Shown here: positions 8,649-46,748 of the stretch, piece by piece
Position numbering within the stretch: the first letter of the stretch is position 1
Layout: each line of letters opens with the position of its first letter
DNA from: a virus
Taxonomy: Duplodnaviria; Caudoviricetes
Strand: one strand, 5' to 3'
IMG/VR virus record: IMGVR_UViG_3300027653_000018
Coordinates: 1 to 46,748 of that record
Length of the DNA: 46,748 nucleotides
Notes under the pieces: model-generated
Database searches by the model: none
Seen by the model: the letters and a program-made list of their open reading frames with translations, nothing else
Told to the model about the DNA's origin: nothing
Program-made: the position numbers and the translations under genes

Positions 8649-9533
8649 TTATTCTTTTTTCATTGAATTATACATATTTTCAGTTATATATCTTGGAATA
8701 TGTAAACATCCCCAACCACCCATATCCAACAAAGGGTCGTAATTTAATTTCTTTTCATTCAGATTTTCTGCTTTTATCCCGACGATAGGTGCACATTCTT
8801 GTCCTATCAATTCTCTCCATCCTTGTGCTTCTTCAATGCTAAATGCCTTCCCTACTCTTTCGATGCAGAAACATCTAGACCTCTCTACGATTGTACCTGC
8901 ATAAATAAAATGGAATAATTGATATTTATTTGCTTGCTCATTCGTAATTGCTCTGTCATTTTGTATATAAGTATCTCTAATTGTTGTATCTAAATATGCT
9001 TTAATTCTCGACCTCTTATTCTTATTTGTTTCTAAATAATCATTCAATTTTTCGCTTGTTGCTCCGAAATTCCTGCCATTCGCAATATCCATTTCAAGCA
9101 TTGTTCTAATATCATTTGCAATCGCTGTATTCCTTACAATCCTACCTAAATATCCATTCTTCTTTAATCCTCCTTTATCATTAATCCCTAACCTGCGTTT
9201 TAGTACTGTTTCTCCTATTTCGCCATTATATTTTACTTTTGAAATATCCTTAAAATAAATCTTGTTTTCTTTCAAAGAACTGGATAAACTTTTCACAAAA
9301 TCCTTAATCAAAGGCTCTATTTGCTTCTGGTACTCTTTTATGAAATTCGCCTCAATTACATTTAATTTATTAAGATTTACCATTGTTTGTTTAAAACTAC
9401 CCTCTTCATTTACATCTAATTTCTGCATTTCCTCCTGCATAATCATTATTAACCTCTTCTCAATCTTTTCTATTTTCTTTTCATATTTACCAAAGAATTT
9501 TTGAAATATATTCTTTTTCTTATCTTCGTACAT
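8649..9533 (-). CDS. Head morphogenesis / minor capsid protein (Mu F-like)
   Basis: C-terminal Y-x-G...SRCFC...GGWGCLH motif. Confidence 0.7.
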   Translation of the reverse strand: MYEDKKKNIFQKFFGKYEKKIEKIEKRLIMIMQEEMQKLDVNEEGSFKQTMVNLNKLNVIEANFIKEYQKQIEPLIKDFVKSLSSSLKENKIYFKDISKVKYNGEIGETVLKRRLGINDKGGLKKNGYLGRIVRNTAIANDIRTMLEMDIANGRNFGATSEKLNDYLETNKNKRSRIKAYLDTTIRDTYIQNDRAITNEQANKYQLFHFIYAGTIVERSRCFCIERVGKAFSIEEAQGWRELIGQECAPIVGIKAENLNEKKLNYDPLLDMGGWGCLHIPRYITENMYNSMKKE

Positions 9534-9926
9534 ATGCGATACATTTTTATATTTATATTATTATTTCTATCATCTTGCGACCCTGTTCGTAGGCATGCAA
9601 ATCTTGTTGAACGTTATCCTTACGTTCACAAAAATGATACTGTAATAATCAAAGATACAATACAAATAATAAAAGAAAGCGTTTTAATCGACACTTTCAC
9701 TGCAATTGAATTTGATACTTTTGTTGTTGAAAAAGAAAAAGCAAAGGTTAAATTAGTAAGAGTAAATGACACAATATTTGTTGATGCGGAATGTTTAGAG
9801 GATACATTTTATGTTGAAAAAGAAAAAATAATTATTGAAAAATATTCCGTAAAGCCAAAGAAAAGATATTGGTATTTATTATTAATTGGCGTTACTTTAG
9901 TTATTTTTATCTGGATAAGAAAATAA
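9534..9926 (+). CDS. Lipoprotein, u-spanin-like, copy 2; the only clear plus-strand gene
   Basis: MRYIFIFILLFLSSC lipobox plus C-terminal TM helix (RYWYLLLIGVTLVIFIWIRK). Confidence 0.75.
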   Translation: MRYIFIFILLFLSSCDPVRRHANLVERYPYVHKNDTVIIKDTIQIIKESVLIDTFTAIEFDTFVVEKEKAKVKLVRVNDTIFVDAECLEDTFYVEKEKIIIEKYSVKPKKRYWYLLLIGVTLVIFIWIRK

Positions 9927-9962
9927 CCCTCCACCTTCACAAAGCGGTTTTACATTATGTTA

Positions 9963-10001
9963 TATATCCGCTACTTTATAGCGGGTATAAGTAAGTTAGG
10001 T
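9963..10001. repeat. Palindromic element (TATAyCCGCTA-N5-TAGCGGGTATA-AGTAA-GTT) abutting a cassette start, copy 1 of 3
   Basis: Also at 26541 and 27928. Confidence 0.85.
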
Positions 10002-10007
10002 GCAATG

Positions 10008-10235
10008 CTATTGAGACCGCAACCATTCCGTTAGCTTTTTCTTTCTTTCATAACTTTTGACTGTTCCTATTTGGTAATTAAACGCTCCCATTCGTTGATA
10101 GCATTCGCCAAAAGGGTTGGCAAAAGCAATAAACTTACCGTCTTTTACAACCCACAGATTACCACGAAAAGAATATACACCATCTTTGCGGTCTTTTGCT
10201 TTCTCGTGTAAGATATTTGTTTCTTCAATTGTCAT
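10008..10235 (-). CDS. Cassette-borne hypothetical protein
   Basis: Likely start MTIEETN at 10235; lies within cassette 9995-10388. Confidence 0.65.
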   Translation of the reverse strand: MTIEETNILHEKAKDRKDGVYSFRGNLWVVKDGKFIAFANPFGECYQRMGAFNYQIGTVKSYERKKKLTEWLRSQ

Positions 10236-10260
10236 CTTTTCAAACTTTGTGAGAAGCACT

Positions 10261-10394
10261 GCACCTAACAAGGTATTGCCAAAAGCAGGACATTCTCGGT
10301 TAATTAATAATTTGTAATTCTATTGGGTATTTTTGCAAGGTTGAAATTTTCTACTTTTAAATCCCTGCCTTCGGCAATACCCGAACCGTTGTAG
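10261..10394 (+). repeat. attC-like site
   Basis: gcacctAAC-aaggtattgccaaaagcagg ... cctgccttcggcaatacc-cgaacc-GTTgtag. Confidence 0.85.
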
Positions 10395-10398
10395 GCAA

Positions 10399-10617
10399 TT
10401 AGTTTGTGACTTCTTTCTTGCATTCAAAGCAGAAGTATGTTTTATCGTCATCATATCCGTACCAAGTTAAATTAGGGTTTCCACAGTCACAAACTAACTG
10501 TTCGCTTTGCCCCACAACATTCAATAAAAGCAATATTTGCTTCGTGGCTTCTTGTAGGGTTATCTTATTAATTTCAAAGTCCATCAGGACACATTTAATT
10601 TTATTTTCTGTTGTCAT
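10399..10617 (-). CDS. Cassette-borne small zinc-ribbon protein
   Basis: CxC...CxxC; N-terminal half encoded inside the attC-like loop. Confidence 0.7.
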   Translation of the reverse strand: MTTENKIKCVLMDFEINKITLQEATKQILLLLNVVGQSEQLVCDCGNPNLTWYGYDDDKTYFCFECKKEVTN

Positions 10618-10642
10618 ACTGCTTTTATTTTTTACGCTATGT
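10507..10642 (+). repeat. attC-like site with degenerate GCT core, overlapping an ORF
   Basis: ttgccccacAAC..aataaaagca ... tgcttttatt..GCTatgtg. Confidence 0.65.
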
Positions 10643-10894
10643 GTAATGCTGTCTAATTGCTTCTATTTCACTTTCGTTTAAACTCGTTGTTTTAATTCTT
10701 TTGAGGTGGTTTATTGCCTCTATGTAATGGTTTGCATTTTCATACATCTTTTCTATAATTCTTTTTACACAATCAGCTTCAATGTTATTTCCTTTTTCTA
10801 ATTGTCTTTTTTCGTTTCTTTTTTGAAATTCTATGTCTTTAAGCAAAGAATTATACCTAACTTCTAGCCTTTCTATCAAAATTAAATCTTGCAT
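10637..10894 (-). CDS. Cassette-borne hypothetical coiled-coil protein
   Basis: 85 aa; stop codon overlaps the cassette core site. Confidence 0.7.
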   Translation of the reverse strand: MQDLILIERLEVRYNSLLKDIEFQKRNEKRQLEKGNNIEADCVKRIIEKMYENANHYIEAINHLKRIKTTSLNESEIEAIRQHYT

Positions 10895-10925
10895 TTTTAT
10901 AAGTTTTGTGGCTTAAACCCGCACA

Positions 10926-11021
10926 ACACATAACAACGTGTATAGCAAATAGCCTATTAATATTCAGTTCTTAATTCGGCGGTTCGTGCTTCGGCTACTT
11001 GCCATACACAAACCGTTAGGC
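10926..11021 (+). repeat. attC-like site
   Basis: acacatAAC-aacgtgtatagcaaatagcc ... ggctacttgccatacac-aaacc-GTTaggc. Confidence 0.85.
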
Positions 11022-11477
11022 AATATTCCAAACATCGTCCCAATTTGAACAACCTCCTGAAATATCCACTTTGGGGAATTGGTTAAAAAACCATTCATCA
11101 AAAATTTCAGAATGGATATTGCACTGGCAGGATGGCGAGCATTCACTAATATCATATCCATTGTCTTCGCAGTATTCTTCGAAATCTTCGTGCCTGTCAA
11201 ACATCCCAAATTCTTCTATTAAATAGTCTTCTATCTCTTCCGCTAATTCGTGCATATCAATAACAGAAACCGAACTATCTACTCTAATTAAATATCTTAA
11301 ACCGATTCTACAATGTTCATTAAATCCTATATAAATTAACTTATTTCCATCCCCAAATACTTTATCTACAAGAATTGAATTTGGAAATTTTTCAATAAAC
11401 TTTTCATAATGCATATCGCCTAACATAGTATTGCCGTCATTGTGGCTTAACTGCTTATTTTCAACTGTATTTTTCAT
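11016..11477 (-). CDS. Cassette-borne acidic hypothetical protein
   Basis: 153 aa; TAA stop within GTTA; start inside the attC loop. Confidence 0.7.
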   Translation of the reverse strand: MKNTVENKQLSHNDGNTMLGDMHYEKFIEKFPNSILVDKVFGDGNKLIYIGFNEHCRIGLRYLIRVDSSVSVIDMHELAEEIEDYLIEEFGMFDRHEDFEEYCEDNGYDISECSPSCQCNIHSEIFDEWFFNQFPKVDISGGCSNWDDVWNIA

Positions 11478-11531
11478 ATTTAACTTTAGTTTTTATTTCC
11501 GCAACGAACGGCAATACTCCGACCGTTATCT
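11413..11531 (+). repeat. attC-like site
   Basis: atatcgcctAAC-atagtattgccgt ... acggcaatact-ccgacc-GTTatct. Confidence 0.85.
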
Positions 11532-11604
11532 GCAACCTTAGCGACACCCTACCATTCATAGATACCGCCTCGTTAGACAATTTTTCGTTGCTCATAATTT
11601 TTTG

Positions 11605-12090
11605 CTTATTAAAAACAGGGATTTCCACCCTGTTGTTATGGTAACCAGCTCTTACCATATCTGGAACTGAGTTAGTTCCGTCTTTTCCCTGGTTCTTCTG
11701 AACACCACCTTAACTCGTTGTAGTCCCGAATAAAAATGACTACATGATGGCTCTCTCAATGACCACTCACCAGTTTACACTCCTGGCTTCTTTGTAGCTT
11801 TACATCTCCCTCCCATTGACGAGTTCGATAACCTATAATTATATAGGGTAGCCTTCACAAAATAACGTTTTGCAAGACGGATTTTATTATTCAAGAGTTT
11901 ACTCTCTATATCCTTATAACTACTCTGCTTTAACAGTCTATAACTGCCCTGACTCATTATAAGAATTGAGGGTGCTATCAGGGGGATAGCATTCTCCCCC
12001 CCCTACGTTTTTTTTCGTGTGTTTTTACTTACCCACGAAACCCGGTACGCTAACTATGTGCCCTTTTTAGTTATTTAATTGTGTGTCTTT
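11605..12090 (-). ncRNA. Candidate large structured non-coding RNA or leader
   Basis: About 480 nt without a convincing ORF, elevated GC, at least 8 short hairpins, directly downstream of a promoter. Confidence 0.4.
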
Positions 12091-12098
12091 TTCTATTG

Positions 12099-12130
12099 TA
12101 AAGATACGACTTATTTTTTAAACTACCAAA
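12099..12130 (-). promoter_or_regulatory. Bacteroidetes-type promoter facing the ncRNA candidate and cassette array A
   Basis: TTTGGTAG...AAGTCG-TATCTTTA; near-copy of the promoter at 12626-12657. Confidence 0.7.
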
Positions 12131-12154
12131 TCTTTTTGCAAATTATTTTAAAAA

Positions 12155-12191
12155 GCCTACTCTGTTAAAGGATTTTCGGCATCCTCCATTT
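12155..12191 (-). repeat. Conserved intergenic motif GGAGGATGCCGAAAATCC-N6-AGAGTAGGC, copy 1
   Basis: 22-bp and 9-bp exact blocks shared with 34036..34071. Confidence 0.8.
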
Positions 12192-12585: not shown

Positions 12586-12625
12586 AATTTTTATTTTTTT
12601 AAAGTTCTTAGCAATATTGCTAATA

Positions 12626-12657
12626 CAAAGATACGACTTATTTTTCAATCTACCAAA
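12626..12657 (-). promoter_or_regulatory. Bacteroidetes sigma70 promoter
   Basis: TTTG-N20-TATCTTTG consensus. Confidence 0.75.
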
Positions 12658-12691
12658 TTATTTTACAAAAAAAATTAATTATATACTAAAT

Positions 12692-21509: not shown

Positions 21510-22178
21510 TTAGTTAGATATTTCTGGAAATTTTAATAATAGTTTTTGGTATGCGGTAAAATCCCTTGCTTTTAAATCGCTTAAAAATTGTTCTCTAATT
21601 CCAAAATCTTCTCTAGGAATTCGTGAAGCTGTTCTGCTTTTTATCCCATTTATTTTATAACTATTTAGCATAGGTAAACTATTGGCGAATGCATAAGTGG
21701 CTACATCTTTATCAGTCCATTCAGCTAGTGGACTAATTCTTACTAATCCTGCTTTATTCTTATAGAATAACCCATGCGTCTTTAATGTAATTCTTCTTGC
21801 TGTAGACTCCTGCATCCTCAATCCAACAAAAAAAGCATCATATTCTTTACCTACATCATATCTATCTTTTCTTTTGTCAGATAAAGAAATTCGGCACATC
21901 TCAATCTGCTCTAGGTTTATATTACCCCATTGACTTATAACTTCATCATAATTATCTATATGCTCCGTTTCCCCCTCCCACCTAATAAACCTCACTTTTA
22001 TATTTGGTCTAATTTCTCGAACAAGGTGCAACATCACCGCACTGTCTTTTCCAAATGAACAAGCCACATAGGGTTTGTCTACTTTATCTAAAGCCCACCT
22101 AATAAAGCCCCTTGTTTTCTCCACAAGGGCTTTATATGGTTTTAACTGTGCATAAATCATTGCCGTTTTTCTATCCAT
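21510..22178 (-). CDS. cysH: CysH-like PAPS-reductase-family protein of the type IV-B module
   Basis: SFGKDS PP-loop, VGLRMQES..R, PLAEWTDKDV. Confidence 0.85.
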   Translation of the reverse strand: MDRKTAMIYAQLKPYKALVEKTRGFIRWALDKVDKPYVACSFGKDSAVMLHLVREIRPNIKVRFIRWEGETEHIDNYDEVISQWGNINLEQIEMCRISLSDKRKDRYDVGKEYDAFFVGLRMQESTARRITLKTHGLFYKNKAGLVRISPLAEWTDKDVATYAFANSLPMLNSYKINGIKSRTASRIPREDFGIREQFLSDLKARDFTAYQKLLLKFPEISN

Positions 22179-23089
22179 TATTCAAACAAAGATTTTGATA
22201 TTCCTTTTTCAAAATAATCACTTACATCTTTTTTAGCGCCTTTATAAATATCCATATACTTCACAAAATCTTCATTCTGGAAATCAAGCTCGCTATCTAT
22301 CACCTTTGTTTCTTTTATCTCCAACTTTATTGCTCCATGCCCTACACGCCCATTGCCTCCCACCTGACTGTTTTGTTCTACCCATGTGTTTAAGGTTGAA
22401 AGAAAAGCACCTGTTTCTACATCATTTGTATCTTTAAGACAAATACGCCAATAGAACTTTGTACCCGCAACAATAGTTTCAGTGTCGTACTTCATCTGAA
22501 CAGGATTAGCTTTTTTTGCAGTATCATCATCATCTTGCAAAAATTCTTTCTTGACTTCATCTTTTGCATCATCCTTGCGGGTGTACATTTCAAGTTGGCA
22601 ATATTCCCAAATACTTTTGGGCTCTTCTGTATAAACATTGTGATATTGCTCTGGTATTAAGTGTAACGTTTCTTTAGCGATTGGAATTAATTTACCTATT
22701 TCAACCTTACCTGGTATAATAACATTGCCCACGCTACCTCCTAAAACGCTAAGCATAGGCATATCTTTTCTCATCTGCCTAACCTTCTCTATATTTATAC
22801 CGCTAGAACCTTTACTCTCTAAGCTTCCACCTGTAAATAGCAAATTAAAACTATCCGCATCTACCTTTATTTTTGTTCCATCTTGTTTAGATAAAATTTC
22901 GATGGCAGCAATATCTCTTAATTTTCCACGTACACTATTACCTGAAATAACAGGTATTTCAATTGGTTTCCCGTTTTTTTGTATAAATTTCTCTCTGCGT
23001 AATTGAGTTACTGTACCGTTCTTTTCTCCTCCATTGTGCGTTATTGAAGATAAGGCAGTTACTATGCCTTCTAAAATGTATGTTTTCAT
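22178..23089 (-). CDS. csf2: Type IV CRISPR-associated Csf2 (Cas7-like backbone)
   Basis: ALSSITHNG, IPVISGNSVRGKLRD, LFTGGSL, VGGNGRVGHG Gly loop. Confidence 0.88.
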   Translation of the reverse strand: MKTYILEGIVTALSSITHNGGEKNGTVTQLRREKFIQKNGKPIEIPVISGNSVRGKLRDIAAIEILSKQDGTKIKVDADSFNLLFTGGSLESKGSSGINIEKVRQMRKDMPMLSVLGGSVGNVIIPGKVEIGKLIPIAKETLHLIPEQYHNVYTEEPKSIWEYCQLEMYTRKDDAKDEVKKEFLQDDDDTAKKANPVQMKYDTETIVAGTKFYWRICLKDTNDVETGAFLSTLNTWVEQNSQVGGNGRVGHGAIKLEIKETKVIDSELDFQNEDFVKYMDIYKGAKKDVSDYFEKGISKSLFE

Positions 23090-26179: not shown

Positions 26180-26197
26180 TTTATTTACATTTCGTTG

Positions 26198-26527
26198 TTA
26201 TATGCCATTTAAATCAATCATTTCTAAACATGAATATTCAGCTAAACCACTTGGCGTATATTCTTGAATATATAAAGTTCTATTGCTTATATGTAGATTT
26301 AAATCATCTATTTTTACATTGTGTTTTAACGCTAATTCCGAAAAAAAACGGCTTATAACACTACCTATACGATTTTCTTTAACCTCACTTATCACTATAT
26401 CTAAAGCTTCTGTCAGTTTTTTAGGCTCGTGAATCATATCCTCTCTTTTTCCAAGCCTCCACTCCTGATGATATTCAAGTATTTCTATTGCTGTTTGTAA
26501 TTCCATTTTTTTATTTATTTTCCCCAT
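26198..26527 (-). CDS. Cassette-borne hypothetical protein (intact copy)
   Basis: Stop within GTTA; crosses the inverse core at ..GSVISRF. Confidence 0.7.
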   Translation of the reverse strand: MGKINKKMELQTAIEILEYHQEWRLGKREDMIHEPKKLTEALDIVISEVKENRIGSVISRFFSELALKHNVKIDDLNLHISNRTLYIQEYTPSGLAEYSCLEMIDLNGI

Positions 26528-26579
26528 TTCATATTTATTGTATACCCGCTATAAAGTAGCGGGTATAAGTAAGTTGTGT
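26350..26579 (+). repeat. attC-like site whose right arm is the palindromic element (copy 2, loop inverted)
   Basis: ggcttatAAC-actacctatac ... gtataagtaa-GTTgtgt. Confidence 0.6.
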
Positions 26580-26595
26580 GCAATACCCCACCGCA

Positions 26596-27261
26596 CTAAA
26601 ACGGCAGTTTATTTTTATTATATTTAAAGTCATATTTCGGCTTCTTTTTTGGCAAATAATCACGCCAATCAAAATGCCTAAAAACAAATATCGCATTGCC
26701 AATTATTACAAGAGGTGTTCTCTTATGTGTAGGACTTCCAGTTCGCCCCAATTCCTTCAAAAATGTTTTCCTGTCAAATAATAAGAACAACCATAACGCA
26801 CACTCTTTGCCAAGTCTATATTTTGGGGCTTTATGGTGTATGTAGCCTTCAATAATTGGCAATGCTTCACCATCAAATAATGGCTCATACTTGTACATTC
26901 TTTCAACAGGACTATGGAAGTACCATTTACCAAGTTTGTATTTATCAAGCCTTGTCCAAAATTCTTCATACACACCAGTTCCTAAACAACTCCAACAAGT
27001 TTCAGGCATTTTCCAATCGCTCTTAAAAACACCTGTACTATCGCAACTCCAACAGTCTTTTTTTATGTGCTGAATATCAGTGCCTACTTTTGTTGCATAC
27101 TTTTTTAATAGGTGTGTTTTTAACTCATAGAACTCTGATTTTGCCAAAAAAGGAATATCCCGATTAGCATTGTGCAGTAGCCAACCCACAAAGTACTGCA
27201 CACAACAACGTATAAAAAACAGTGGGCTGTATCGTGCTGATTTTAAAGTGTTTTGTTTCAT
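26596..27261 (-). CDS. Cassette-borne protein with a DnaJ-like zinc finger
   Basis: CWSCDSTG and CWSCLGTG. Confidence 0.7.
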   Translation of the reverse strand: MKQNTLKSARYSPLFFIRCCVQYFVGWLLHNANRDIPFLAKSEFYELKTHLLKKYATKVGTDIQHIKKDCWSCDSTGVFKSDWKMPETCWSCLGTGVYEEFWTRLDKYKLGKWYFHSPVERMYKYEPLFDGEALPIIEGYIHHKAPKYRLGKECALWLFLLFDRKTFLKELGRTGSPTHKRTPLVIIGNAIFVFRHFDWRDYLPKKKPKYDFKYNKNKLPF

Positions 27262-27333
27262 ATCTTATTTAGTTGTGGTGGACAGGTAAGTGCTTCTATC
27301 TGCCACCGATTTTTTATACTCGGAACGTTGTAG
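27197..27333 (+). repeat. attC-like site
   Basis: tgcacacAAC-aacgtataaaaaacagtgg ... ccaccgattttttatac-tcggaac-GTTgtag. Confidence 0.85.
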
Positions 27334-27337
27334 GCAA

Positions 27338-27586
27338 TTAGTTTGCCTGCTTAGTGCATTTACAAGGCTTCCCACCATACTCATCAATGTACACTTCCAA
27401 TCCTTGGCAATTAGGGCAAACTAACTGTTCGCTTTGCCCTACAACAACAGGTTGGCAAAATAATTTTACTTGCTCCTGCGCATATTCTTCCATTGCTTTC
27501 AACACTGCATCGTGTAACGGAGAGCCTTCATTTATATTAAGCGTTCTCTTTGTAGCTTCTTTCAATATTTCTTCCTTTGTTTTCAT
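27338..27586 (-). CDS. Cassette-borne small zinc-ribbon protein
   Basis: VVGQSEQLVC junction followed by CPNC...CKC. Confidence 0.7.
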   Translation of the reverse strand: MKTKEEILKEATKRTLNINEGSPLHDAVLKAMEEYAQEQVKLFCQPVVVGQSEQLVCPNCQGLEVYIDEYGGKPCKCTKQAN

Positions 27587-27615
27587 AATTTATTATAATT
27601 AAATTGTAATTAAAA

Positions 27616-27702
27616 ATTGCCCGTGAGAATCGAACTCACCTCATCCTGCCGTAAATTGTAGTGCGCATCTACAAAGTGCATTATCCCGCCGATTAGGGCA
27701 AC
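27616..27702 (-). tRNA. Degenerate tRNA-like element
   Basis: Acceptor GTTGCCC/GGGCAAT, T-arm GTGAG-TTCGATT-CTCAC, stem TTGTAG-ATGCGCA-CTACAA; weak D arm, no CCA. Confidence 0.5.
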
Positions 27703-27719
27703 TTTTCATATACTTAACA

Positions 27720-27914
27720 TTAGCCGCAAGCCTGATTACACTTCCGATAAAACTGTTCTAATCCCCAACTTATAATTGCATCTTCACATTCGATAAACCA
27801 AAGACCGTCTTTCCAACTGAAATAAACGTGCATACAAGTTCTATTGTAATAGGCTAATTTATCGCCGACCTTTACATTTGGTCTTTGAAATAAATATCTA
27901 AATAGTTTTTTCAT
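27720..27914 (-). CDS. Cassette-borne hypothetical protein
   Basis: 64 aa; starts just after palindromic element copy 3. Confidence 0.6.
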   Translation of the reverse strand: MKKLFRYLFQRPNVKVGDKLAYYNRTCMHVYFSWKDGLWFIECEDAIISWGLEQFYRKCNQACG

Positions 27915-27927
27915 TTCATATTTATTG

Positions 27928-27966
27928 TATACCCGCTACTTTATAGCGGGTATAAGTAAGTTAGCA
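27928..27966. repeat. Palindromic element, copy 3
   Basis: tatacccgcta-cttta-tagcgggtata-agtaa-GTTagca. Confidence 0.85.
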
Positions 27967-27971
27967 GAAAC

Positions 27972-28268
27972 CTAAAAAACATCGCTAAACCTTTTTTCAT
28001 AACCATACTTTTTAGTGAGTTTGGTAATTAGTTCATTTGTATATTTGTGAATTTCTGATTTAGGATAACAAGTAGGTTGATGAACAACGCCAGTTATAAC
28101 ATCAATTAAATATGTATCGTAAACGTGCCCTTCGCCTAAAAAATATCCTATTTCATAACCAAAATGACTATCCCAAACAACACGGTCGTTGAAGGAAAAG
28201 GCATCTGCTAACAATGTATAACCGTCAGGCTTAGTTTCCGTTTCTTTTGAAAGTTTTTGCTCATTCAT
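27972..28268 (-). CDS. Cassette-borne hypothetical protein
   Basis: N-terminus MNEQKLSKETETKPDGYTLLAD encoded by the attC loop and arm. Confidence 0.7.
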   Translation of the reverse strand: MNEQKLSKETETKPDGYTLLADAFSFNDRVVWDSHFGYEIGYFLGEGHVYDTYLIDVITGVVHQPTCYPKSEIHKYTNELITKLTKKYGYEKRFSDVF

Positions 28269-28336
28269 AATTTCTATATTTTTAATTAAGTTAATCTTTT
28301 ATTCACGCCCGAACGGTTATACTCGGCACGTTAGTT
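28204..28336 (+). repeat. attC-like site
   Basis: tctgctAAC-aatgtataaccgt ... acggttatac-tcggcac-GTTagtt. Confidence 0.85.
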
Positions 28337-28623
28337 GCAATTAGTTTGTTGCCACATTTCGGGCAAATAAGTAACCAAGCGTCATTTACAACAGGTGTTT
28401 TATCAGCACTTTCGTTATGTGTGCCAATCCACCCACATTTACAACATTCCCACTTTGCATTTACATCTACCTGTGCTATACCCAATATTTTTAACTTATG
28501 TTCGTAGTATCTTTCAGCAAAGTCTAACATTGCTGTTTTGTTAAAACCATTTTCGGGTAGTTCTTTTGGTGTCCACCATTCTTCAAAATATTCTTCTACT
28601 GTCATCCTGTTTAAGTTTATCAT
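28303..28623 (-). CDS. Cassette-borne zinc-ribbon protein
   Basis: CCKCGW...CPKCG. Confidence 0.65.
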   Translation of the reverse strand: MINLNRMTVEEYFEEWWTPKELPENGFNKTAMLDFAERYYEHKLKILGIAQVDVNAKWECCKCGWIGTHNESADKTPVVNDAWLLICPKCGNKLIATNVPSITVRA

Positions 28624-28665
28624 TATTAAATCGCCCTACACATACACGCAAAACGTTGTAGGCAA

Positions 28666-28956
28666 TTATTTTTTGACTTCTTTCTTGCATTCAAAGCAGA
28701 AGTATGTTTTATCGTCATCATATCCGTACCAAGTTAAATTAGGTTTTCCACATCCACAAACTAACTGTCCGCTTCGCCCTTCAACAGCAGGTATAGTTAA
28801 TTTTTTCAAATCAGCTACAACAGCGCAAATTGCTTGAGCATAGTGGGAGTTTTTAAGCCTATCTTCTTTGGTGTACATAAGTGGGTCTTCACACACTCTT
28901 CTGTGTAAGGCAATTTTCTCATCCCACTTTTCAATCAATTTCTGTAATTCATTCAT
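28666..28956 (-). CDS. Cassette-borne protein sharing its C-terminal module with 10399..10617
   Basis: ..QLVC.CG.PNLTWYGYDDDKTYFCFECKKEV. Confidence 0.7.
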   Translation of the reverse strand: MNELQKLIEKWDEKIALHRRVCEDPLMYTKEDRLKNSHYAQAICAVVADLKKLTIPAVEGRSGQLVCGCGKPNLTWYGYDDDKTYFCFECKKEVKK

Positions 28957-29005
28957 AATTTATCTATTTAAATCAAAAACTAACCATACCTGCGACACGT
29001 TATAT
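28775..29005 (+). repeat. attC-like site with a long coding loop
   Basis: cgcccttcAAC-agcaggtatagttaattttt ... aaaaactaaccatacctgc-gacac-GTTatat. Confidence 0.8.
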
Positions 29006-29309
29006 GCCATTTAAATCAATCATTTCTAAACATGAATATTCAGCTAAACCACTTGGCGTATATTCTTGAATATATAAAGTTTTATTGCTTATATGTAGAT
29101 TTAAATCATCTATTTTTACATTGTGTTTTAACGCTAATTCCGAAAAAAAAACGGCTTATAACACTACCTATACGATTTTCTTTAACCTCACTTATCACTA
29201 CATCTAAAGCCTCTGTTAATTTTTTAGGCTCGTGAATCATATCCTCTCTTTTTCCAAGCCTCCATTCCTGATGATATTCAAGTATTTCTATTGCTGTTTG
29301 TAATTCCAT
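29000..29309 (-). pseudogene. Frameshifted duplicate of the 26198..26527 cassette gene
   Basis: A9 at 29143-29151 versus A8 at 26341-26348; truncated to 67 aa. Confidence 0.75.
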
Positions 29310-29354
29310 TTTTTAGTTTTTATTAATTATTTCTGATATACGGATATCATTCAA

Positions 29355-34014: not shown

Positions 34015-34035
34015 CTTTTTTATTTTTAAAACAAT

Positions 34036-34071
34036 GCCTACTCTTTTCTGGATTTTCGGCATCCTCCATTT
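34036..34071 (-). repeat. Conserved intergenic motif, copy 2
   Basis: Matches 12155..12191. Confidence 0.8.
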
Positions 34072-34705
34072 ATTTATTCTTATTTATTACTAACTCTATA
34101 TACTCTTTGTAATATTCATTACAAATCTTATACTTCTCTTTTATCTCCTCCTCTATATCTAAATCCCTATCAATCCAACTGCTGAACGTATATCTACTGC
34201 TTTCTGGAATATGATTAACTTGATGCAAATCTAAATCATCCCATGCAGTCAAAAGGCTTTCGGGCGTGGATAAAAGAACATCGCAAACTTTTCCTTTCTC
34301 CAAATTAAATGACATCATATATCCTCTAATTTGCCAATCATATCCCGACTTCTTTACTTTTGCATCCATTTCTTCTTGTGTCCATGCAAAGGTCTTAGCA
34401 TGCCATGCTACTTTCCAATCTATTACTACATCGCCTGTAATCGTATCTGGGTGTCCTGTCAACCACCCTAAATCTCCTCTTTTATCGGACTTCACATAAT
34501 TAGTGAACTCATTCCTATTAACTAAATCTATCGCCTCCTGCTCCAATATTATTCCCTTCTGCATTGGTTTCGTAGATACGTGTTCCCTTATCCCGAATAA
34601 ATCATATATAGCACATTCTTCAATGTATGTCTTATTCGTTTGGGTTAACTTTCCTGATGCACTCATTATCCTGTGCAACTGGCTAACTCTAATCTTTAAT
34701 TCCAT
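34070..34705 (-). CDS. YqaJ/lambda-exonuclease-like protein
   Basis: MQKGIILE, GHPD, IDWK, YDWQIRGYM. Confidence 0.8.
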   Translation of the reverse strand: MELKIRVSQLHRIMSASGKLTQTNKTYIEECAIYDLFGIREHVSTKPMQKGIILEQEAIDLVNRNEFTNYVKSDKRGDLGWLTGHPDTITGDVVIDWKVAWHAKTFAWTQEEMDAKVKKSGYDWQIRGYMMSFNLEKGKVCDVLLSTPESLLTAWDDLDLHQVNHIPESSRYTFSSWIDRDLDIEEEIKEKYKICNEYYKEYIELVINKNK

Positions 34706-35222
34706 CTAAAACCTCCTTTTGCTCTTTAGTTAAATCAAACTTTAATATATCTTCTTTCGTTGTTGCATTATTCTTTAATGCTTCAATTGCCTTTGCAAAG
34801 CGCTCATTTGAAAGTTTTTCTCTTGGTGGTTGTTCTGGATTATTGTTCTCCATGCTATCTATATCTCTACTATCATCTATTGCAAACAATCCATTCAAAG
34901 CGTATTTCCTTGCGTATGAACTCGCACTACCTGTAATTTGTGCATCATCCATACCTTTCTTGGTTAAAGACTCGCGTGCATACGCTTGTACTGATACGCT
35001 TGCTCCATCCTTATTCACTATTGTTGCTACCGCCTTTAGGTAATATCTTTCACCTACAAGCTTAATGCTATCTGTTATTGCAATGTAGCATTCTTCTTCT
35101 TTTAATAAAGGTTTTACAGCTTCCAAAATATCCTCACAACTTCTGTAATGATATTGGCCGTAATCGCTATATTGGCTTTTTGGTACCTTTAACTTATTCT
35201 GAATTCTAATTAACTCTTTCAT
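34689..35222 (-). CDS. erf: ERF-family ssDNA annealing recombinase
   Basis: YRSCEDILEAVKP, QITGSASSYARKYALNGLFAID. Confidence 0.92.
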   Translation of the reverse strand: MKELIRIQNKLKVPKSQYSDYGQYHYRSCEDILEAVKPLLKEEECYIAITDSIKLVGERYYLKAVATIVNKDGASVSVQAYARESLTKKGMDDAQITGSASSYARKYALNGLFAIDDSRDIDSMENNNPEQPPREKLSNERFAKAIEALKNNATTKEDILKFDLTKEQKEVLDGIKD

Positions 35223-44100: not shown

Positions 44101-44795
44101 TTCCTAATATCTCTAATAACCTGCGATACTCTCTTGCTATCCACTTGTGCCTTCTCCATTGCTTTTGCAACCAAATCTATATTCCTACTTCCTCCCTTTC
44201 CTAATGTTTCTACTGCAGCATTCAGAACATCTGCTTCATTTTTTGCTCCTTTTACAGATTGAGAAAATTTTTCAAACTCCTTTGCTCCTAACTTACTTGC
44301 TCCTACCATGCTTCTAGCATAATCCTGAATTCTCTTATCTACTTGCAAAAATTGTTCATCCAATGTTTTCATAGAGCCAGTAACCTTATCAATCTCTTTC
44401 TCAATATCAAACATTGCTTTCCTATCTGCTACGCCTTTACTTTGCTTTTTCGATAATTCATCATACTGTCTTTGTAAAGATTTTAATTTCTCATTCTCCT
44501 TATCTAATTTTGAAATTAACTCATCCCTCATTTTAGACTGCTCTGCGATTGCTTTTGCATGGTTTGTAACCTTTCGCATTTCTCTTTCTGTATCTGCCAA
44601 TCGCTCACCTAAATTCTTTGCACTCTCCGCCATTTCATCTAAAGAACTCTTTGTCTTATCGATACTTTTATCATCGATTAAAGGTTTTGAGATTTCTTCT
44701 TTAGATTTCTCAATTTCCTTCATCTTTTCAATAATGCTATCTATATCTCTCTTAATCTGGCTGTTATCTCCCTCGAAGCTTAGATTTATTTTCAT
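41172..44795 (-). CDS. Tail tape measure protein
   Basis: 1207 aa coiled-coil; ALISTGVGALV and SIPFVGVALG hydrophobic segments. Confidence 0.88.
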   Translation of the reverse strand: MKINLSFEGDNSQIKRDIDSIIEKMKEIEKSKEEISKPLIDDKSIDKTKSSLDEMAESAKNLGERLADTEREMRKVTNHAKAIAEQSKMRDELISKLDKENEKLKSLQRQYDELSKKQSKGVADRKAMFDIEKEIDKVTGSMKTLDEQFLQVDKRIQDYARSMVGASKLGAKEFEKFSQSVKGAKNEADVLNAAVETLGKGGSRNIDLVAKAMEKAQVDSKRVSQVIRDIRNELTRMKLSGEDATNPERYQELTKRARDYQTALKEIDNSLKGQSSQLNKVILGMQEISSVASVVTGTMALFGLENDNVVRTLTRLNALMTIMNGLQGVSTALTRQDSIVRSAWNAIMRASAVATNTTVTALTRLRLALISTGVGALVAGVGYLISKLVEWNSNNKEVEATTMRVNAQVGKEIVEVQKLRNTIENNNKSLEDRNRALGELRKMYPDILKNLTDEEILAGNVADAYKRIEQSIIDVNIAQAFRAKAEERINDYVQKYMEYYEQHVSNGELFESTVTSILSMSREELEVEKQKTSEAIEQLRMNGLNTESLIYQYDLIDATLKMDSERGIVMDEVNKLLGESNKLTANLTANTQGVSNNTKIAKDNFKDLLNTLIQIEEKALMESLGAGLEKELKVLNKEFDNQIGTLDALAKSFKDAGKMTEELEERFKNVAKTIVSNFQKDTFDAIENFNNSIVDLVQGIDKQLAGDDEVQDVIDKYSNMYAEIDAKLAEIDANRHLVKGEQLDKLNRLEEELINQRIALSKKEAKEVEDASVNSFINAQRRIKSVTDNQLSLAKQIFGDSEEIKQAEIESSYAYIEAFGISKEKVDAYLKSDGSVDIKAFFGLHDDNIAEEVGNEIANIVIVSSRKVQEMQGIFEKAGGSIGALFVLGFSGEVDKELEEALKRAGQQIERLARQTIDNIFEMQRTALQAQMSAQERNIENLRRLIDEERALLDERDTMYDEDMASSFERDEEKLNLLKEQLLAEEQAREQAAQKLTELEIREAKARFAMQSAEQIMNSATALSAILKGSAQAMASTASIPFVGVALGIAQAVALVSGYLAMRAKINAMKQDVPTFEAGGALDLKNVGHSHRQGGLGLHTKDGRKVAEYERGEILYAVNKKESRKGHALPLLEMLNLGDLQGMELMLSDINGTINQGEVRVKNDINVKTDKEVSKGLNRLIAISDKNIYYHNGSKYIKKGNKITRVI

Positions 44796-45135
44796 TTTTC
44801 TTATTTTTCTCTAAAAAATTAATATGCTCTGTAAGCAATCTAAAGAAATTACCTGCTTCCATTTCCTTAATTCTATATGCTTTCTCAATATCATTTTTAG
44901 ACAAAGAATAAAGCATCTTACTAAATTCAACATTAGAAAAGTCTTGCCTTAAAGATTTTAATTTCTTCTTCTGCTCTACAACCTCTTTTCCTGCTCCTCC
45001 AAAATTGACGTACCTATACTCGAAATGTCTTTGACTATTTCTTCTAATCTCATTCTCTGTCTTAAAATATCTTCTATATGCTCTTTGTATTCCTGCAATA
45101 TATTCTGAACCAAAGGCATTCCAAAATCCAAAAAA
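44764..45135 (-). CDS. Tail assembly chaperone, -1 frame extension (T part)
   Basis: Overlaps 44976..45533 in the -1 frame just upstream of the tape measure gene. Confidence 0.45.
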   Translation of the reverse strand, partial: FFGFWNAFGSEYIAGIQRAYRRYFKTENEIRRNSQRHFEYRYVNFGGAGKEVVEQKKKLKSLRQDFSNVEFSKMLYSLSKNDIEKAYRIKEMEAGNFFRLLTEHINFLEKNKKNENKSKLRGR

Positions 45136-45533
45136 CTTTGAAAACTTAAGCCCTCCTTCGCCCAATCTTCAATCTTTTTTAATTCTTCTTCTTCCGAAAT
45201 ACCTCTCAAATCCTCTCCTTCTGCGTTTATATATAATGCACATAATCTTAAAATTGGATTCCCTAAATTCTTTTGTTCCTTTAATTCTGTTAATCTGTTG
45301 TGTGCAATAACTGCGACCTCTGCTAAGTTTCCCTTATTTGCATTATTAAATATTCTTGTAAGTACTTTCTTTTCATCCTCTTCCACTCCATACACTCCTC
45401 TTCCAATATCCTGAACTAGATTTGACGCTCTTACATACCTTTCAATAGATAACGATTTCGTTGCTGTATAAATTACGTTGTTAGCTCTGAACGGTCTTCC
45501 AATTTTTATTTCAATATCTTTTAATTTCTCCAT
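44976..45533 (-). CDS. Tail assembly chaperone (G part), putative
   Basis: Position upstream of the tape measure gene; slippery T TTT TTG. Confidence 0.55.
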   Translation of the reverse strand: MEKLKDIEIKIGRPFRANNVIYTATKSLSIERYVRASNLVQDIGRGVYGVEEDEKKVLTRIFNNANKGNLAEVAVIAHNRLTELKEQKNLGNPILRLCALYINAEGEDLRGISEEEELKKIEDWAKEGLSFQSFLDFGMPLVQNILQEYKEHIEDILRQRMRLEEIVKDISSIGTSILEEQEKRL

Positions 45534-45820
45534 AAGTCTAAAAATATTTTAACTGCCAATATTGTTGCAAGCGTTGTAAATATAATTTCTATTATTCCTG
45601 TGTAAAATATAATACTAAGCCATAATGATAATTGCCCTGAAAGGCAATACGGACACGTTAGCAATTTGGTTAATGCATTGTGCGAATTCAATCCATCCTC
45701 TTTCGTTCCAAATAGCTTTAGAATTATATTCTCATAATTTTTTAATAAATCTTTTAAGAATATAAATTCATAAACCACTCCGAATAGAAATGATGCTATA
45801 AATATTTTAAAACTTATCAT
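45521..45820 (-). CDS. Small membrane protein (DUF1360-like)
   Basis: TM helices and LLTCPYCLS motif. Confidence 0.6.
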   Translation of the reverse strand: MISFKIFIASFLFGVVYEFIFLKDLLKNYENIILKLFGTKEDGLNSHNALTKLLTCPYCLSGQLSLWLSIIFYTGIIEIIFTTLATILAVKIFLDLWRN

Positions 45821-46277
45821 AATCGTCTTTTATTTTCTTTGCGTCCTTCATAACACCTTGTGATGTATTAATTAATTCTTTAAAATAATATCTAAATCCC
45901 TTACCTTTATTCATTATCTGTATCGACCTATCGATTGATGTTAATTCCCTCCATATTAAGAAAAATCCTATTGCCTTAGATATTACATGTTCTATATCTG
46001 TAAATTTACTATAAAATTCACTCAATATAAAACTATCTAATAGGAATAACACAAAGAATATAAATAGATATATGAATATCTTTACAAATAATCCATAGAA
46101 TTTATCCCAACTCCATTTTTCTTTACTATATACCATTCTGATAAATGCAATAATTGTATCTGTAATAACTGCAAAGAATATAGTGATTATCATGTAATAG
46201 CTTGGTGCTATAACAATTGTAATACTCCCAATTATTCCAATTATTGCGGTAATTATATTATCTGAATCTCTTATCAT
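45807..46277 (-). CDS. Putative holin, copy 2
   Basis: Paralog of 308..793 (DTII..F.R...KEKWSW.KF...K). Confidence 0.7.
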   Translation of the reverse strand: MIRDSDNIITAIIGIIGSITIVIAPSYYMIITIFFAVITDTIIAFIRMVYSKEKWSWDKFYGLFVKIFIYLFIFFVLFLLDSFILSEFYSKFTDIEHVISKAIGFFLIWRELTSIDRSIQIMNKGKGFRYYFKELINTSQGVMKDAKKIKDDYDKF

Positions 46278-46748
46278 TTATAAAGTTATTTAAAAAGCAT
46301 ATGTACCTTTCCTTATCTTTAAAGATATTGCAATCTTGTTTGTTTGTGCCAAAAAACGGTTCAATGATTAGCGCTGGTATTGGCGTAAGATTTAAGAAAT
46401 AAAAACCTCTTTCACTTTTGTGTGACGTAAACTTCACTCCTCTAGCTCCTCTAATCTTCATTTCTGGATATTCTTTTATATACGCATCCGCCAATTCTCT
46501 TGCATACCTTTCACCCTTGTTGCTACCACCATACGCAAAGACCTCAAAGCCATTAGCCTCTTCTGTATGATGCCCATTAAAATGTAGCTCGATAACCAAT
46601 TTGTACTGCTTATTTTCTCGCAAAAAATTAGCTAAAGTCTTTTGTCTTTGATAGTAATTTCTAATCGTATGCACATAAACATCTGCATTTAAACCATTAG
46701 CAATATCTCTGTTATAATCCCATTCAGATTGTTTTAAGAATTCTGAAT
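46258..46748 (-). CDS. Amidase endolysin, copy 2 (N-terminus beyond the window end)
   Basis: Near-identical direct repeat of about 1754..2225 with scattered substitutions. Confidence 0.88.
   Translation of the reverse strand, partial: SEFLKQSEWDYNRDIANGLNADVYVHTIRNYYQRQKTLANFLRENKQYKLVIELHFNGHHTEEANGFEVFAYGGSNKGERYARELADAYIKEYPEMKIRGARGVKFTSHKSERGFYFLNLTPIPALIIEPFFGTNKQDCNIFKDKERYICFLNNFINDKRFR

Follow-up and report, generated by a model that had tools for sequence, protein, structure and literature searches.

A phage-borne array of reversed gene cassettes with integron-like exchange and no recombinase gene found in the record

In classical integrons, as far as the accessible text of the relevant papers describes them, a docking site (attI) is followed by tandem cassettes with AAC/GTT cores, the inverse core of each cassette is complementary to the start of that same cassette, crossover takes place at G|TT and the bottom strand is the better folded one (PMC4889954, PMC5027507, PMC7790495). 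All these traits recur in a cluster of four small cassettes, here called array A, which begins at position 9995 of the virus record IMGVR_UViG_3300027653_000018 (Duplodnaviria; Caudoviricetes); the window analysed is the whole of this record, 46,748 nucleotides. The array departs from the classical pattern in its partner recombinase, which lacks the insertion holding the I2 helix in IntI, in the lopsided bulge beside the core, where attC sites have equal spacers and extra-helical bases, and in its genes, which face attI, often start within the hairpin loop and have no cassette promoter (Pc) in the phage.

Integrase-less cassette clusters (CALINs) in lytic phages, including Polaribacter phage P12002L, were reported by Qi et al. 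2023, the accessible text describing neither reversed genes nor a captured docking site nor a non-IntI enzyme (PMC9892861). Two of the P12002L sites were called 'divergent' there and credited to mosaicism, HattCI called one site of the type treated here, and P12002L_attC1 was the one of six sites that IntI1 did not recombine (PMC9892861). Our detector made 10 calls in P12002L, 9 of them same-type sites with reversed genes; in our reading of what is accessible, P12002L_attC1 maps to a hairpin of the window type and attC2 is an array head read in the opposite direction. Treponema 'reverse' integrons are different again, as there a true IntI gene is inverted relative to the array, whereas here the cassette genes are inverted within their sites and the enzyme is not IntI (PMC4889954). 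According to the accessible parts of the respective papers, recombinases other than IntI occurred, in the work of Cury et al., only next to a very small number of classical attC sites (PMC4889954), a single complete integron is listed for Bacteroidetes proper by IntegronFinder 2.0 (PMC9024848), and Bartlau et al. took the integrases of the phages Freya, Leef and Ingeline for signs of lysogeny, the word 'integron' having 0 occurrences (PMC8776804); what is accessible of PMC8618304 adds nothing on the window system. No published description of this system was met in the literature searched, which covers few subscription journals.

Outside the integron field, T4-type phages carry mobile promoter cassettes (PeSL), which are thought to shuffle by homology between similar elements. 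They are alike in placing repeated hairpin elements between small variable phage genes and unlike in having no R-box polarity, docking site or linked recombinase; such shuffling would involve long repeats and no fixed crossover base, whereas the joints observed here share only GTT, three bases, between otherwise unlike flanks.

We favour, at a probability of roughly 0.7, the reading that array A is a phage-borne cassette array of a Bacteroidota integron-like system, in which the genes lie backwards in normal cassettes and an Xer-like recombinase, likely provided by the host or by a co-infecting phage, likely cuts at G|TT. The phenomenon is real, integron-like in its working and outside the IntI family, and the window represents an unusually clean case of an enzyme-less phage with a bacterial-type docking site. 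A preliminary description, made from the sequence of the window, had recognised the cassettes and missed the attI-like site left of 9995, the genes starting in a hairpin loop and the enzyme-encoding relatives.

Cassette units and their exchange

Array A comprises four small genes, all on the minus strand and facing the attI-like site. Its parts, together with a second array of the same window, are the following (a strand is given where a feature has one):

9953..9997, plus strand: attI-like docking site, with a 27-base palindrome (9963-9989) that is followed by AGTAA and by the crossover G|TT (9995/9996)
9995..10387: cassette A1, gene 10008-10235 (minus strand, 75 amino acids, no family), inverse core 10261-10269, 121-base hairpin
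10388..10635: cassette A2, gene 10399-10617 (minus strand, 72 amino acids), inverse core 10510-10518
10636..11014: cassette A3, core GCT, gene 10637-10894 (minus strand, 85 amino acids), inverse core 10926-10934, 83-base hairpin
11015..11524: cassette A4, gene 11016-11477 (minus strand, 153 amino acids) starting in the loop, inverse core 11416-11424, 103-base hairpin
11525..11574: what is left of one more cassette, corresponding to the 3' end of the viperin cassette in the related phage contig L001 and broken off at a second GTT (11572)
26197..29340: array B, with two attI-like copies (G at 26573 and 27960) and hairpins 27204/27327, 28210/28330 and 28783/28999

The eight motifs quoted in the preliminary description all lie where it placed them (8/8). 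Its rule that each unit starts with GTT holds generally, the core at 10636 reading GCT instead, a change which preserves the stop codon of A3 as TAG. The stop codons of A3 (TAG) and A4 (TAA) do overlap the core, as had been noted for some of the units, while in A1 and A2 the stop is found 13 and 11 bases further in. Our detector had paired A2 with 10676, and the true partner at 10636 was shown by a homolog with GTT at that place (L146). The A2 gene starts within the hairpin loop and reads across the inverse core into a Cys-rich core; it belongs to the 'VVGRSEQL' cassette family, which has copies at 27327 and 28655 and whose end motif is conserved in 17 of the 20 viral loci found by their start. 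The A1 hairpin is a copy of a 121-base repeat present in 94 genome loci, nearly all from Bacteroidota, and the A3 hairpin is near-identical to one in the integrase-bearing phage G010 (L162). Searches of Pfam, PHROG, PADLOC and the ESM Atlas gave no usable family for A1 to A4, a weak PADLOC match for A3 (E 0.0018) being set aside.

That the units are cassettes exchanged at G|TT is borne out by related phages, metagenome runs and cultured isolates. The left flank of array A is common to two related phages. In L001, where the flanks are 95% identical, the match to the window extends to 9998 and resumes at 11523 with a different cassette in between, so that the swapped block is bounded by G|TT precisely on either side. 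Flank and docking site recur in L016, followed there by two other reversed units. The A1 gene was found in 8 viral loci, in 7 of which it begins at GTT with other neighbours (three of these being one sequence, without the short arm), and in run X2 A1 follows a different left flank with 0 differences from 9994 onwards. A homolog of A3 in run X6, behind another left flank, and homologs of A4 in runs X3 and X6 each start at their own core; the joints of run X1 were left aside, as this run may be where the window comes from and as there are repeats within the window. One contig of run X3 joins 9926 to 11611 without docking site and array, with 34 bases on its short side. No loci came back from viral contigs for the A4 protein, and for the flank genes only the L001 contig. 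When the array was compared with cultured phages by blastn, no more than four short matches appeared, and tblastn of A2 gave nothing real.

In the cultured Polaribacter phage Freya, isolates 1, 5, 6, 8 and 9 differ from Freya_10 by cassette blocks cut at GTT, the flanks examined being otherwise identical; these five isolates were fully mapped, Freya_2 at one end only, and Freya_3, 4 and 7 were left out. Isolate 6 carries a new reversed cassette at the head site, with an integrase of the same class adjoining. Gain or loss exactly at G|TT was thus seen among relatives and in 5 of 5 fully mapped Freya isolates. Breakpoints unrelated to the GTT cores, or complementarity no better than in shuffled controls, had been named beforehand as outcomes that would speak against cassettes; this check was run and left the cassette interpretation standing.

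L001 also includes an intact viperin-family antiviral gene as a reversed cassette (L001:2003-2875, minus strand; NF038283 301 bits, cut-off 180; PADLOC pVip E 5e-89), and the window retains only the last codons of an L001-type viperin gene. At L159:2998-3234 the A1 gene occurs as an ordinary phage gene with no cassette sites at all, which may represent the state before or after cassette formation.

Hairpin sites and the polarity of their genes

The complementarity between the start of a unit and the opening of its own hairpin, as first described, is well supported: over the eight cassettes of arrays A and B it amounts to 42 of 48 positions when the six bases that follow GTT are compared (p=1.5e-4; mean of the permutations 22.4), and in array A alone to 21 of 24, a value reached by 1 of 24 permutations (p=0.042). 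The inverse core fits its own start better than that of the next unit in 19 of 25 phage and 88 of 109 bacterial cases. A search for AAC...GYT pairs whose arms are complementary gave 32 rows, among them all four array A sites and three from array B; the detector likewise reports seven sites on the plus strand (four in A, three in B), with 0 on the minus strand and 0 in 10 Markov-shuffled windows.

The 'long imperfect hairpins' of the preliminary description are hairpins indeed, with covarying stems, and it is the word 'long' that needs qualification, as stems of roughly 11-19 pairs surround long AT-rich loops and whole-site folding is weak (see below). Among 19 aligned sites, 15 of 15 stem pairs show double changes, and 92.6% of 340 cells are paired versus 31-36% in slid controls, which supports folding of the sites, though it says nothing for a recombination reaction; AAC and GTT are invariant in these sites, although the same columns also served to choose them. 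The stems are short, with an asymmetric bulge of about 2 versus 6 bases, and in all seven window sites the arm before GTT is 2-4 bases longer than the arm after AAC. An arm offset of +4 gives 114 pairs versus 3 in shuffled DNA for 80 bacterial loci, which were chosen by one arm and of which much is one repeat family. In comparison with attC-aadA7, neither the equal R- and L-box spacers nor the single extra-helical bases are found, the arms being offset by 2-4 bases beside the core, and with such asymmetric arms the preliminary view of the pairing as an established attC signature is not supported. Judged by arm duplex energies, the minus or bottom strand is the more stable one at 37 of 38 phage sites, 153 of 164 bacterial sites and 6 of the 7 window sites.

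The genes do lie on the strand opposite to that of canonical cassettes, as had been claimed. Besides the four of four in array A, 27 of 40 phage sites have reversed genes, 5 forward and 8 unassigned, the 5 forward calls looking like shadow open reading frames (ORFs), whereas 138 of 196 bacterial sites have forward genes, 21 reversed and 37 unassigned. Cassette starts and ends have distinct signatures, and in phage cassettes these are oriented as in bacteria (39 of 42 starts, 35 of 40 ends); phage cassettes are therefore not flipped bacterial cassettes, and the phage gene reads as an antisense gene inside a normally oriented cassette frame. Recombination of the top strand would yield flipped cassettes, as stated in the accessible text of PMC5027507; two routes to such an arrangement, ordinary cassettes inserted in flipped orientation and a gene inverted between its cores, were ruled out, as the hairpins and ends have the polarity seen in bacteria. 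The possibility that the reversal is only apparent, the sites being palindromic, was also rejected, as the gene upstream of the 121-base hairpin is forward in 59, reversed in 6 and unassigned in 31 of its 96 bacterial matches.

Of 70 distinct phage sites, 38 have the start of the gene within the hairpin loop and 24 just outside, with no call at 8; where it starts in the loop, GTT reads as Val in frame in 28 of 38 cases, many of them from one family. L047, L051 and L108 are reversed-cassette runs with DNA-methyltransferase-like genes in genome bins and are probably phage DNA; they were left out of the bacterial set for the counts on polarity of ends and strand stability and grouped with the phages for the loop-start counts. 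The duplicates L135, L151, L157 and L158 were left out of the homolog, strand-stability and loop-start counts.

The docking site and its partner recombinase

The docking site occurs in three window copies (9995, 26573, 27960), whose likeness ends at GTT. With the recombinase-linked bacterial site L023 the phage copies share 34-39 of 45 bases and only 4-7 of the next 25 bases leftward, the values for the copy at 9953-9997 being 36 of 45 and 4 of 25. A metagenome scan gave 30 loci, namely 3 from the window's record, 2 from related phages, 3 chance-looking ones, 9 which are recombinase-linked and 13 without a recombinase seen in the available DNA; in the 9 linked loci the recombinase ends about 100-140 bases upstream of the docking site. 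Left out before counting were L019, L020 and L027 (window's record), L015 (same contig as L001) and the chance-looking L010, L022 and L024. In the system as a whole, the site thus heads the array and adjoins a recombinase gene, as expected of attI; in the window the site heads the array and the enzyme is absent.

On bacterial contigs the docking site is preceded by a promoter-like motif and followed by mostly forward genes. In the alignment, this bacterial TATATTTG promoter-like motif is absent from the phage copies, which have kept no forward Pc, and in place of genes pointing away from attI and expressed from Pc we find four of four array A genes facing attI. A related palindromic docking site with promoter-like motif and without adjoining recombinase lies at L171:1490-1520, in the genome of L080, Flavobacterium daejeonense; solitary docking sites of this kind are also found in 13 metagenome loci.

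The absence of a tyrosine recombinase from the genome, already remarked upon in the preliminary description, was confirmed for the record, which is classed 'linear' and 76% complete (CheckV): none was found among the 72 window ORFs by a Pfam/PHROG scan and none by a six-frame search with PF00589. PF00589 was met in 6 of 26 viral records searched, two of the matches being unrelated integrases, and 5 of the 8 records at least 90% complete have no PF00589. Enzyme-encoding relatives do exist. Phage G010 (265 kb, complete) has an intact enzyme of the same class (45% to L018) beside the head of a 19-site array, and in L167 each of the 16 genes that were scored is reversed. The same recombinase class is found in Freya, Leef and Ingeline, with four reversed-cassette sites before the recombinase in Leef and no cassette sites reported by the detector in Ingeline. 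Decayed recombinase copies stand at array heads in G002 and G004/G005. At L160 and L161 (G005 and G004), the recombinase beside a cassette site is without its N-terminal part and has an in-frame TAG, being either decayed or recoded.

The best family for the partner enzymes is the XerA-like NF040815 (PF13495 and PF00589), with the difference that here the enzymes adjoin cassette arrays. The recombinases behind the bacterial docking site reach 213 and 227 bits (cut-off 220) and a further partner enzyme 177 bits, whereas against TIGR02249 (IntI) partner enzymes reach 158-203 bits with a cut-off of 265, the two at the bacterial docking site scoring 203 and 200. The catalytic R-K-H-R-H-Y is invariant in 6 of 6 aligned proteins. 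Between aligned blocks, the partner enzymes have 18 residues where VchIntIA has 60, so that the IntI-specific insertion is not found; this insertion holds the I2 helix needed for attC handling, according to the accessible text of PMC7790495. The partner enzyme thus appears to be an Xer-like recombinase without the IntI insertion and not IntI, and the host IntI-type integrase proposed at first is not supported; the accessible text of PMC9892861 also reports that IntI1 did not recombine a site of the same type.

Weighing of explanations, genomic setting and meaning

We regard as established the unit boundaries, the gene polarity, the exchange at G|TT, the shared docking site and the class of enzyme beside that site elsewhere. 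According to the favoured reading, the minus strand, which is the phage coding strand, would fold while single-stranded, AAC pairing with GTT beside the lopsided bulge and the stem of 11-19 pairs. The enzyme, which the window phage likely obtains from its host or a co-infecting phage and which would act in trans, would release each unit, cut at its own G|TT and at the following one, in the form of a circle, and circles would be inserted at the attI-like site. The hairpin, now ahead of the gene and often holding its start codon, would travel along with it, and since transcription in the phage is directed toward attI, expression and retention would be limited to cassettes whose genes are reversed. 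The phage would have lost the enzyme, or never had it, while keeping three copies of the bacterial-type docking site.

Several observations weigh against this reading. The mechanism is deduced from sequence, and the detector and the structure were derived from the very sites to which they were applied, the bacterial loci being selected by one arm. Whole-site folding is weak (z -1.1 to -3.2; only one of 7 folds with 0/200 shuffles as good), because the loops are long and AT-rich. A single crossover point is at odds with further breaks in homology at AAC: the copy of A2 at 28655 has the core in common with A2 and not the hairpin, and loose ends at 10517-10521, at the AAC of A2, occur in all four runs. 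As to the link between site and enzyme, 6 of the 9 recombinase-linked loci are near-identical and represent one lineage, 2 of the 9 are short matches at contig ends, and 13 of the 30 docking-site loci have no detected recombinase; among 401 sampled Bacteroidota genomes only 2 contain the docking motif at 1 mismatch (control 1). The phage itself may encode the enzyme, since the record is only 76% complete by CheckV, and fewer transcripts may reach the array because of the terminator-like hairpin at 11614-11634.

The array could also be frozen, its cassettes having been assembled in a recombinase-encoding ancestor, with blocks now swapped by homologous recombination and sites decaying. The window does have an Erf-type annealing protein gene (34689-35222), and the decayed recombinase genes at the array heads of G002 and G004/G005 fit such a history. 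Array turnover is recent, yet the array also decays, signs of which are the GCT core at 10636, the half-sites that occur in array B and what remains of the viperin cassette at 11525-11574. We nevertheless consider a frozen array unlikely, as relatives with 95% identical flanks have different first cassettes joined at G|TT, A1 recurs base for base beside another neighbour, three shared bases at the joints are too few for annealing, and the bacterial-type docking site has been kept in three copies. Far less credible still is that the hairpins are RNA structures for translation control or termination which head phage genes, the shuffling being a side effect of repeats; in the phages it is the coding strand that is more stable and 38 of 70 sites have the start codon in the loop, but in bacteria the non-coding strand is the more stable one (153 of 164), G|TT is where the breakpoints are, AAC and GTT are constant in the 19 sites (which these columns helped to select), and no Rfam match was found. 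About as little credence is left for a classical CALIN served by a true host IntI. Phage CALINs have been published (accessible text of PMC9892861), and the AAC/GTT cores, the own-start complementarity and the more stable bottom strand fit the attC rules as far as given in PMC5027507; the enzyme at the docking site, however, scores 203 and 200 against an IntI cut-off of 265 and has 18 residues in place of 60, the arms are lopsided, and IntI1 failed on P12002L_attC1, a same-type site, in the accessible account (PMC9892861).

Beyond the favoured reading, the system might be a second, independently evolved integron of Bacteroidota and their phages, with an Xer-like enzyme, no I2 helix and a new site geometry. 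Phages would then hold mirror-image cassettes and parasitise the host enzyme via captured docking sites, and a second crossover at the inverse core would swap hairpin-encoded N-termini onto new protein bodies, mostly in frame, shuffling protein parts as well as genes. We hold this wider view only tentatively, leaning slightly against it.

As for the setting, the 46.7-kb record includes terminase, tape measure, primase, Erf, ThyA and lysis genes, and nearly all its genes are on the minus strand. Around array A the following features were noted:

9501..9926, plus strand: lipoprotein-like ORF in the left flank, N-terminus read by eye, no family match (Pfam/PHROG)
9931..9947: terminator-like hairpin separating the flank gene from the docking site, from a scan
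11614..11634, minus strand: terminator-like hairpin at the right border, read by eye and not listed by the terminator scan
12617..12678, minus strand: repeated promoter-like element (TAnnTTTG) pointing toward array A

A weaker copy of the promoter-like element lies at 12090-12151. TAnnTTTG, which we take to be the Bacteroidota promoter (-7) motif, suggests together with the distribution of the hairpins a Bacteroidota host. In an attempt to name the host, 1 of 5 and 2 of 401 genomes proved to contain the docking motif, in none of them adjoining a recombinase in the DNA examined. A sigma-70 promoter scan of the window was uninformative (17 sites versus 12.8 expected), and Rfam at gathering scores gave two DUF805b matches only, both outside the array; these RNA motifs (RF02914) lie at 12154-12189 and 34035-34069 on the minus strand, one of them directly downstream of the promoter-like repeat facing array A.

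In array B, all genes are on the minus strand and several half-sites occur. A 340-base duplication (26197-26537 and 28999-29340) starts at a G|TT, its left copy having an attI-like site in place of the long arm of a hairpin; in the attI-like copy at 26541-26567 the inner part of the palindrome is inverted. A tRNA-Tyr gene lies at 27614-27703 on the minus strand, between a half-hairpin and an attI-like copy, and the hairpin 28783-28999 measures 216 bases, its loop holding 57 codons of the gene it heads.

The right end of the record repeats 1753-2225 with 463 of 473 bases identical, so the genome probably closes. There are two different lysis modules (amidase, holin), at 1-2225 and 44764-46748, and since the right end overlaps 1753-2225, positions 1-1752 may be a variant arm from another strain. 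A lipoprotein-like gene is present twice in inverted orientation (1-203 and 9575-9777, 97% alike), the copy on the side of the docking site being the only long-looking gene on the plus strand; the inverted copy is not an assembly slip, because L001 carries the same one. A weak RAMP-superfamily match (CRISPR-associated fold; 22178-23089, minus strand, E 1.5e-4) adjoins a gene with a PAPS-reductase domain.

The definition of an integron rests on IntI and its I2 helix, and the tools now in use find hardly any in Bacteroidetes (accessible text of PMC9024848). If the system is what we propose, a parallel system would account for much of the rapid gene turnover in Bacteroidota and their phages, and recombination of hairpins would have arisen twice. 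Reversed cassettes with start codons in their hairpins also bear on the question of cassette origin, and several phage 'integrases' taken as signs of lysogeny may be cassette shufflers. Cultured phage-host pairs, namely Freya, Leef and P12002L on Polaribacter, make the whole model directly testable.

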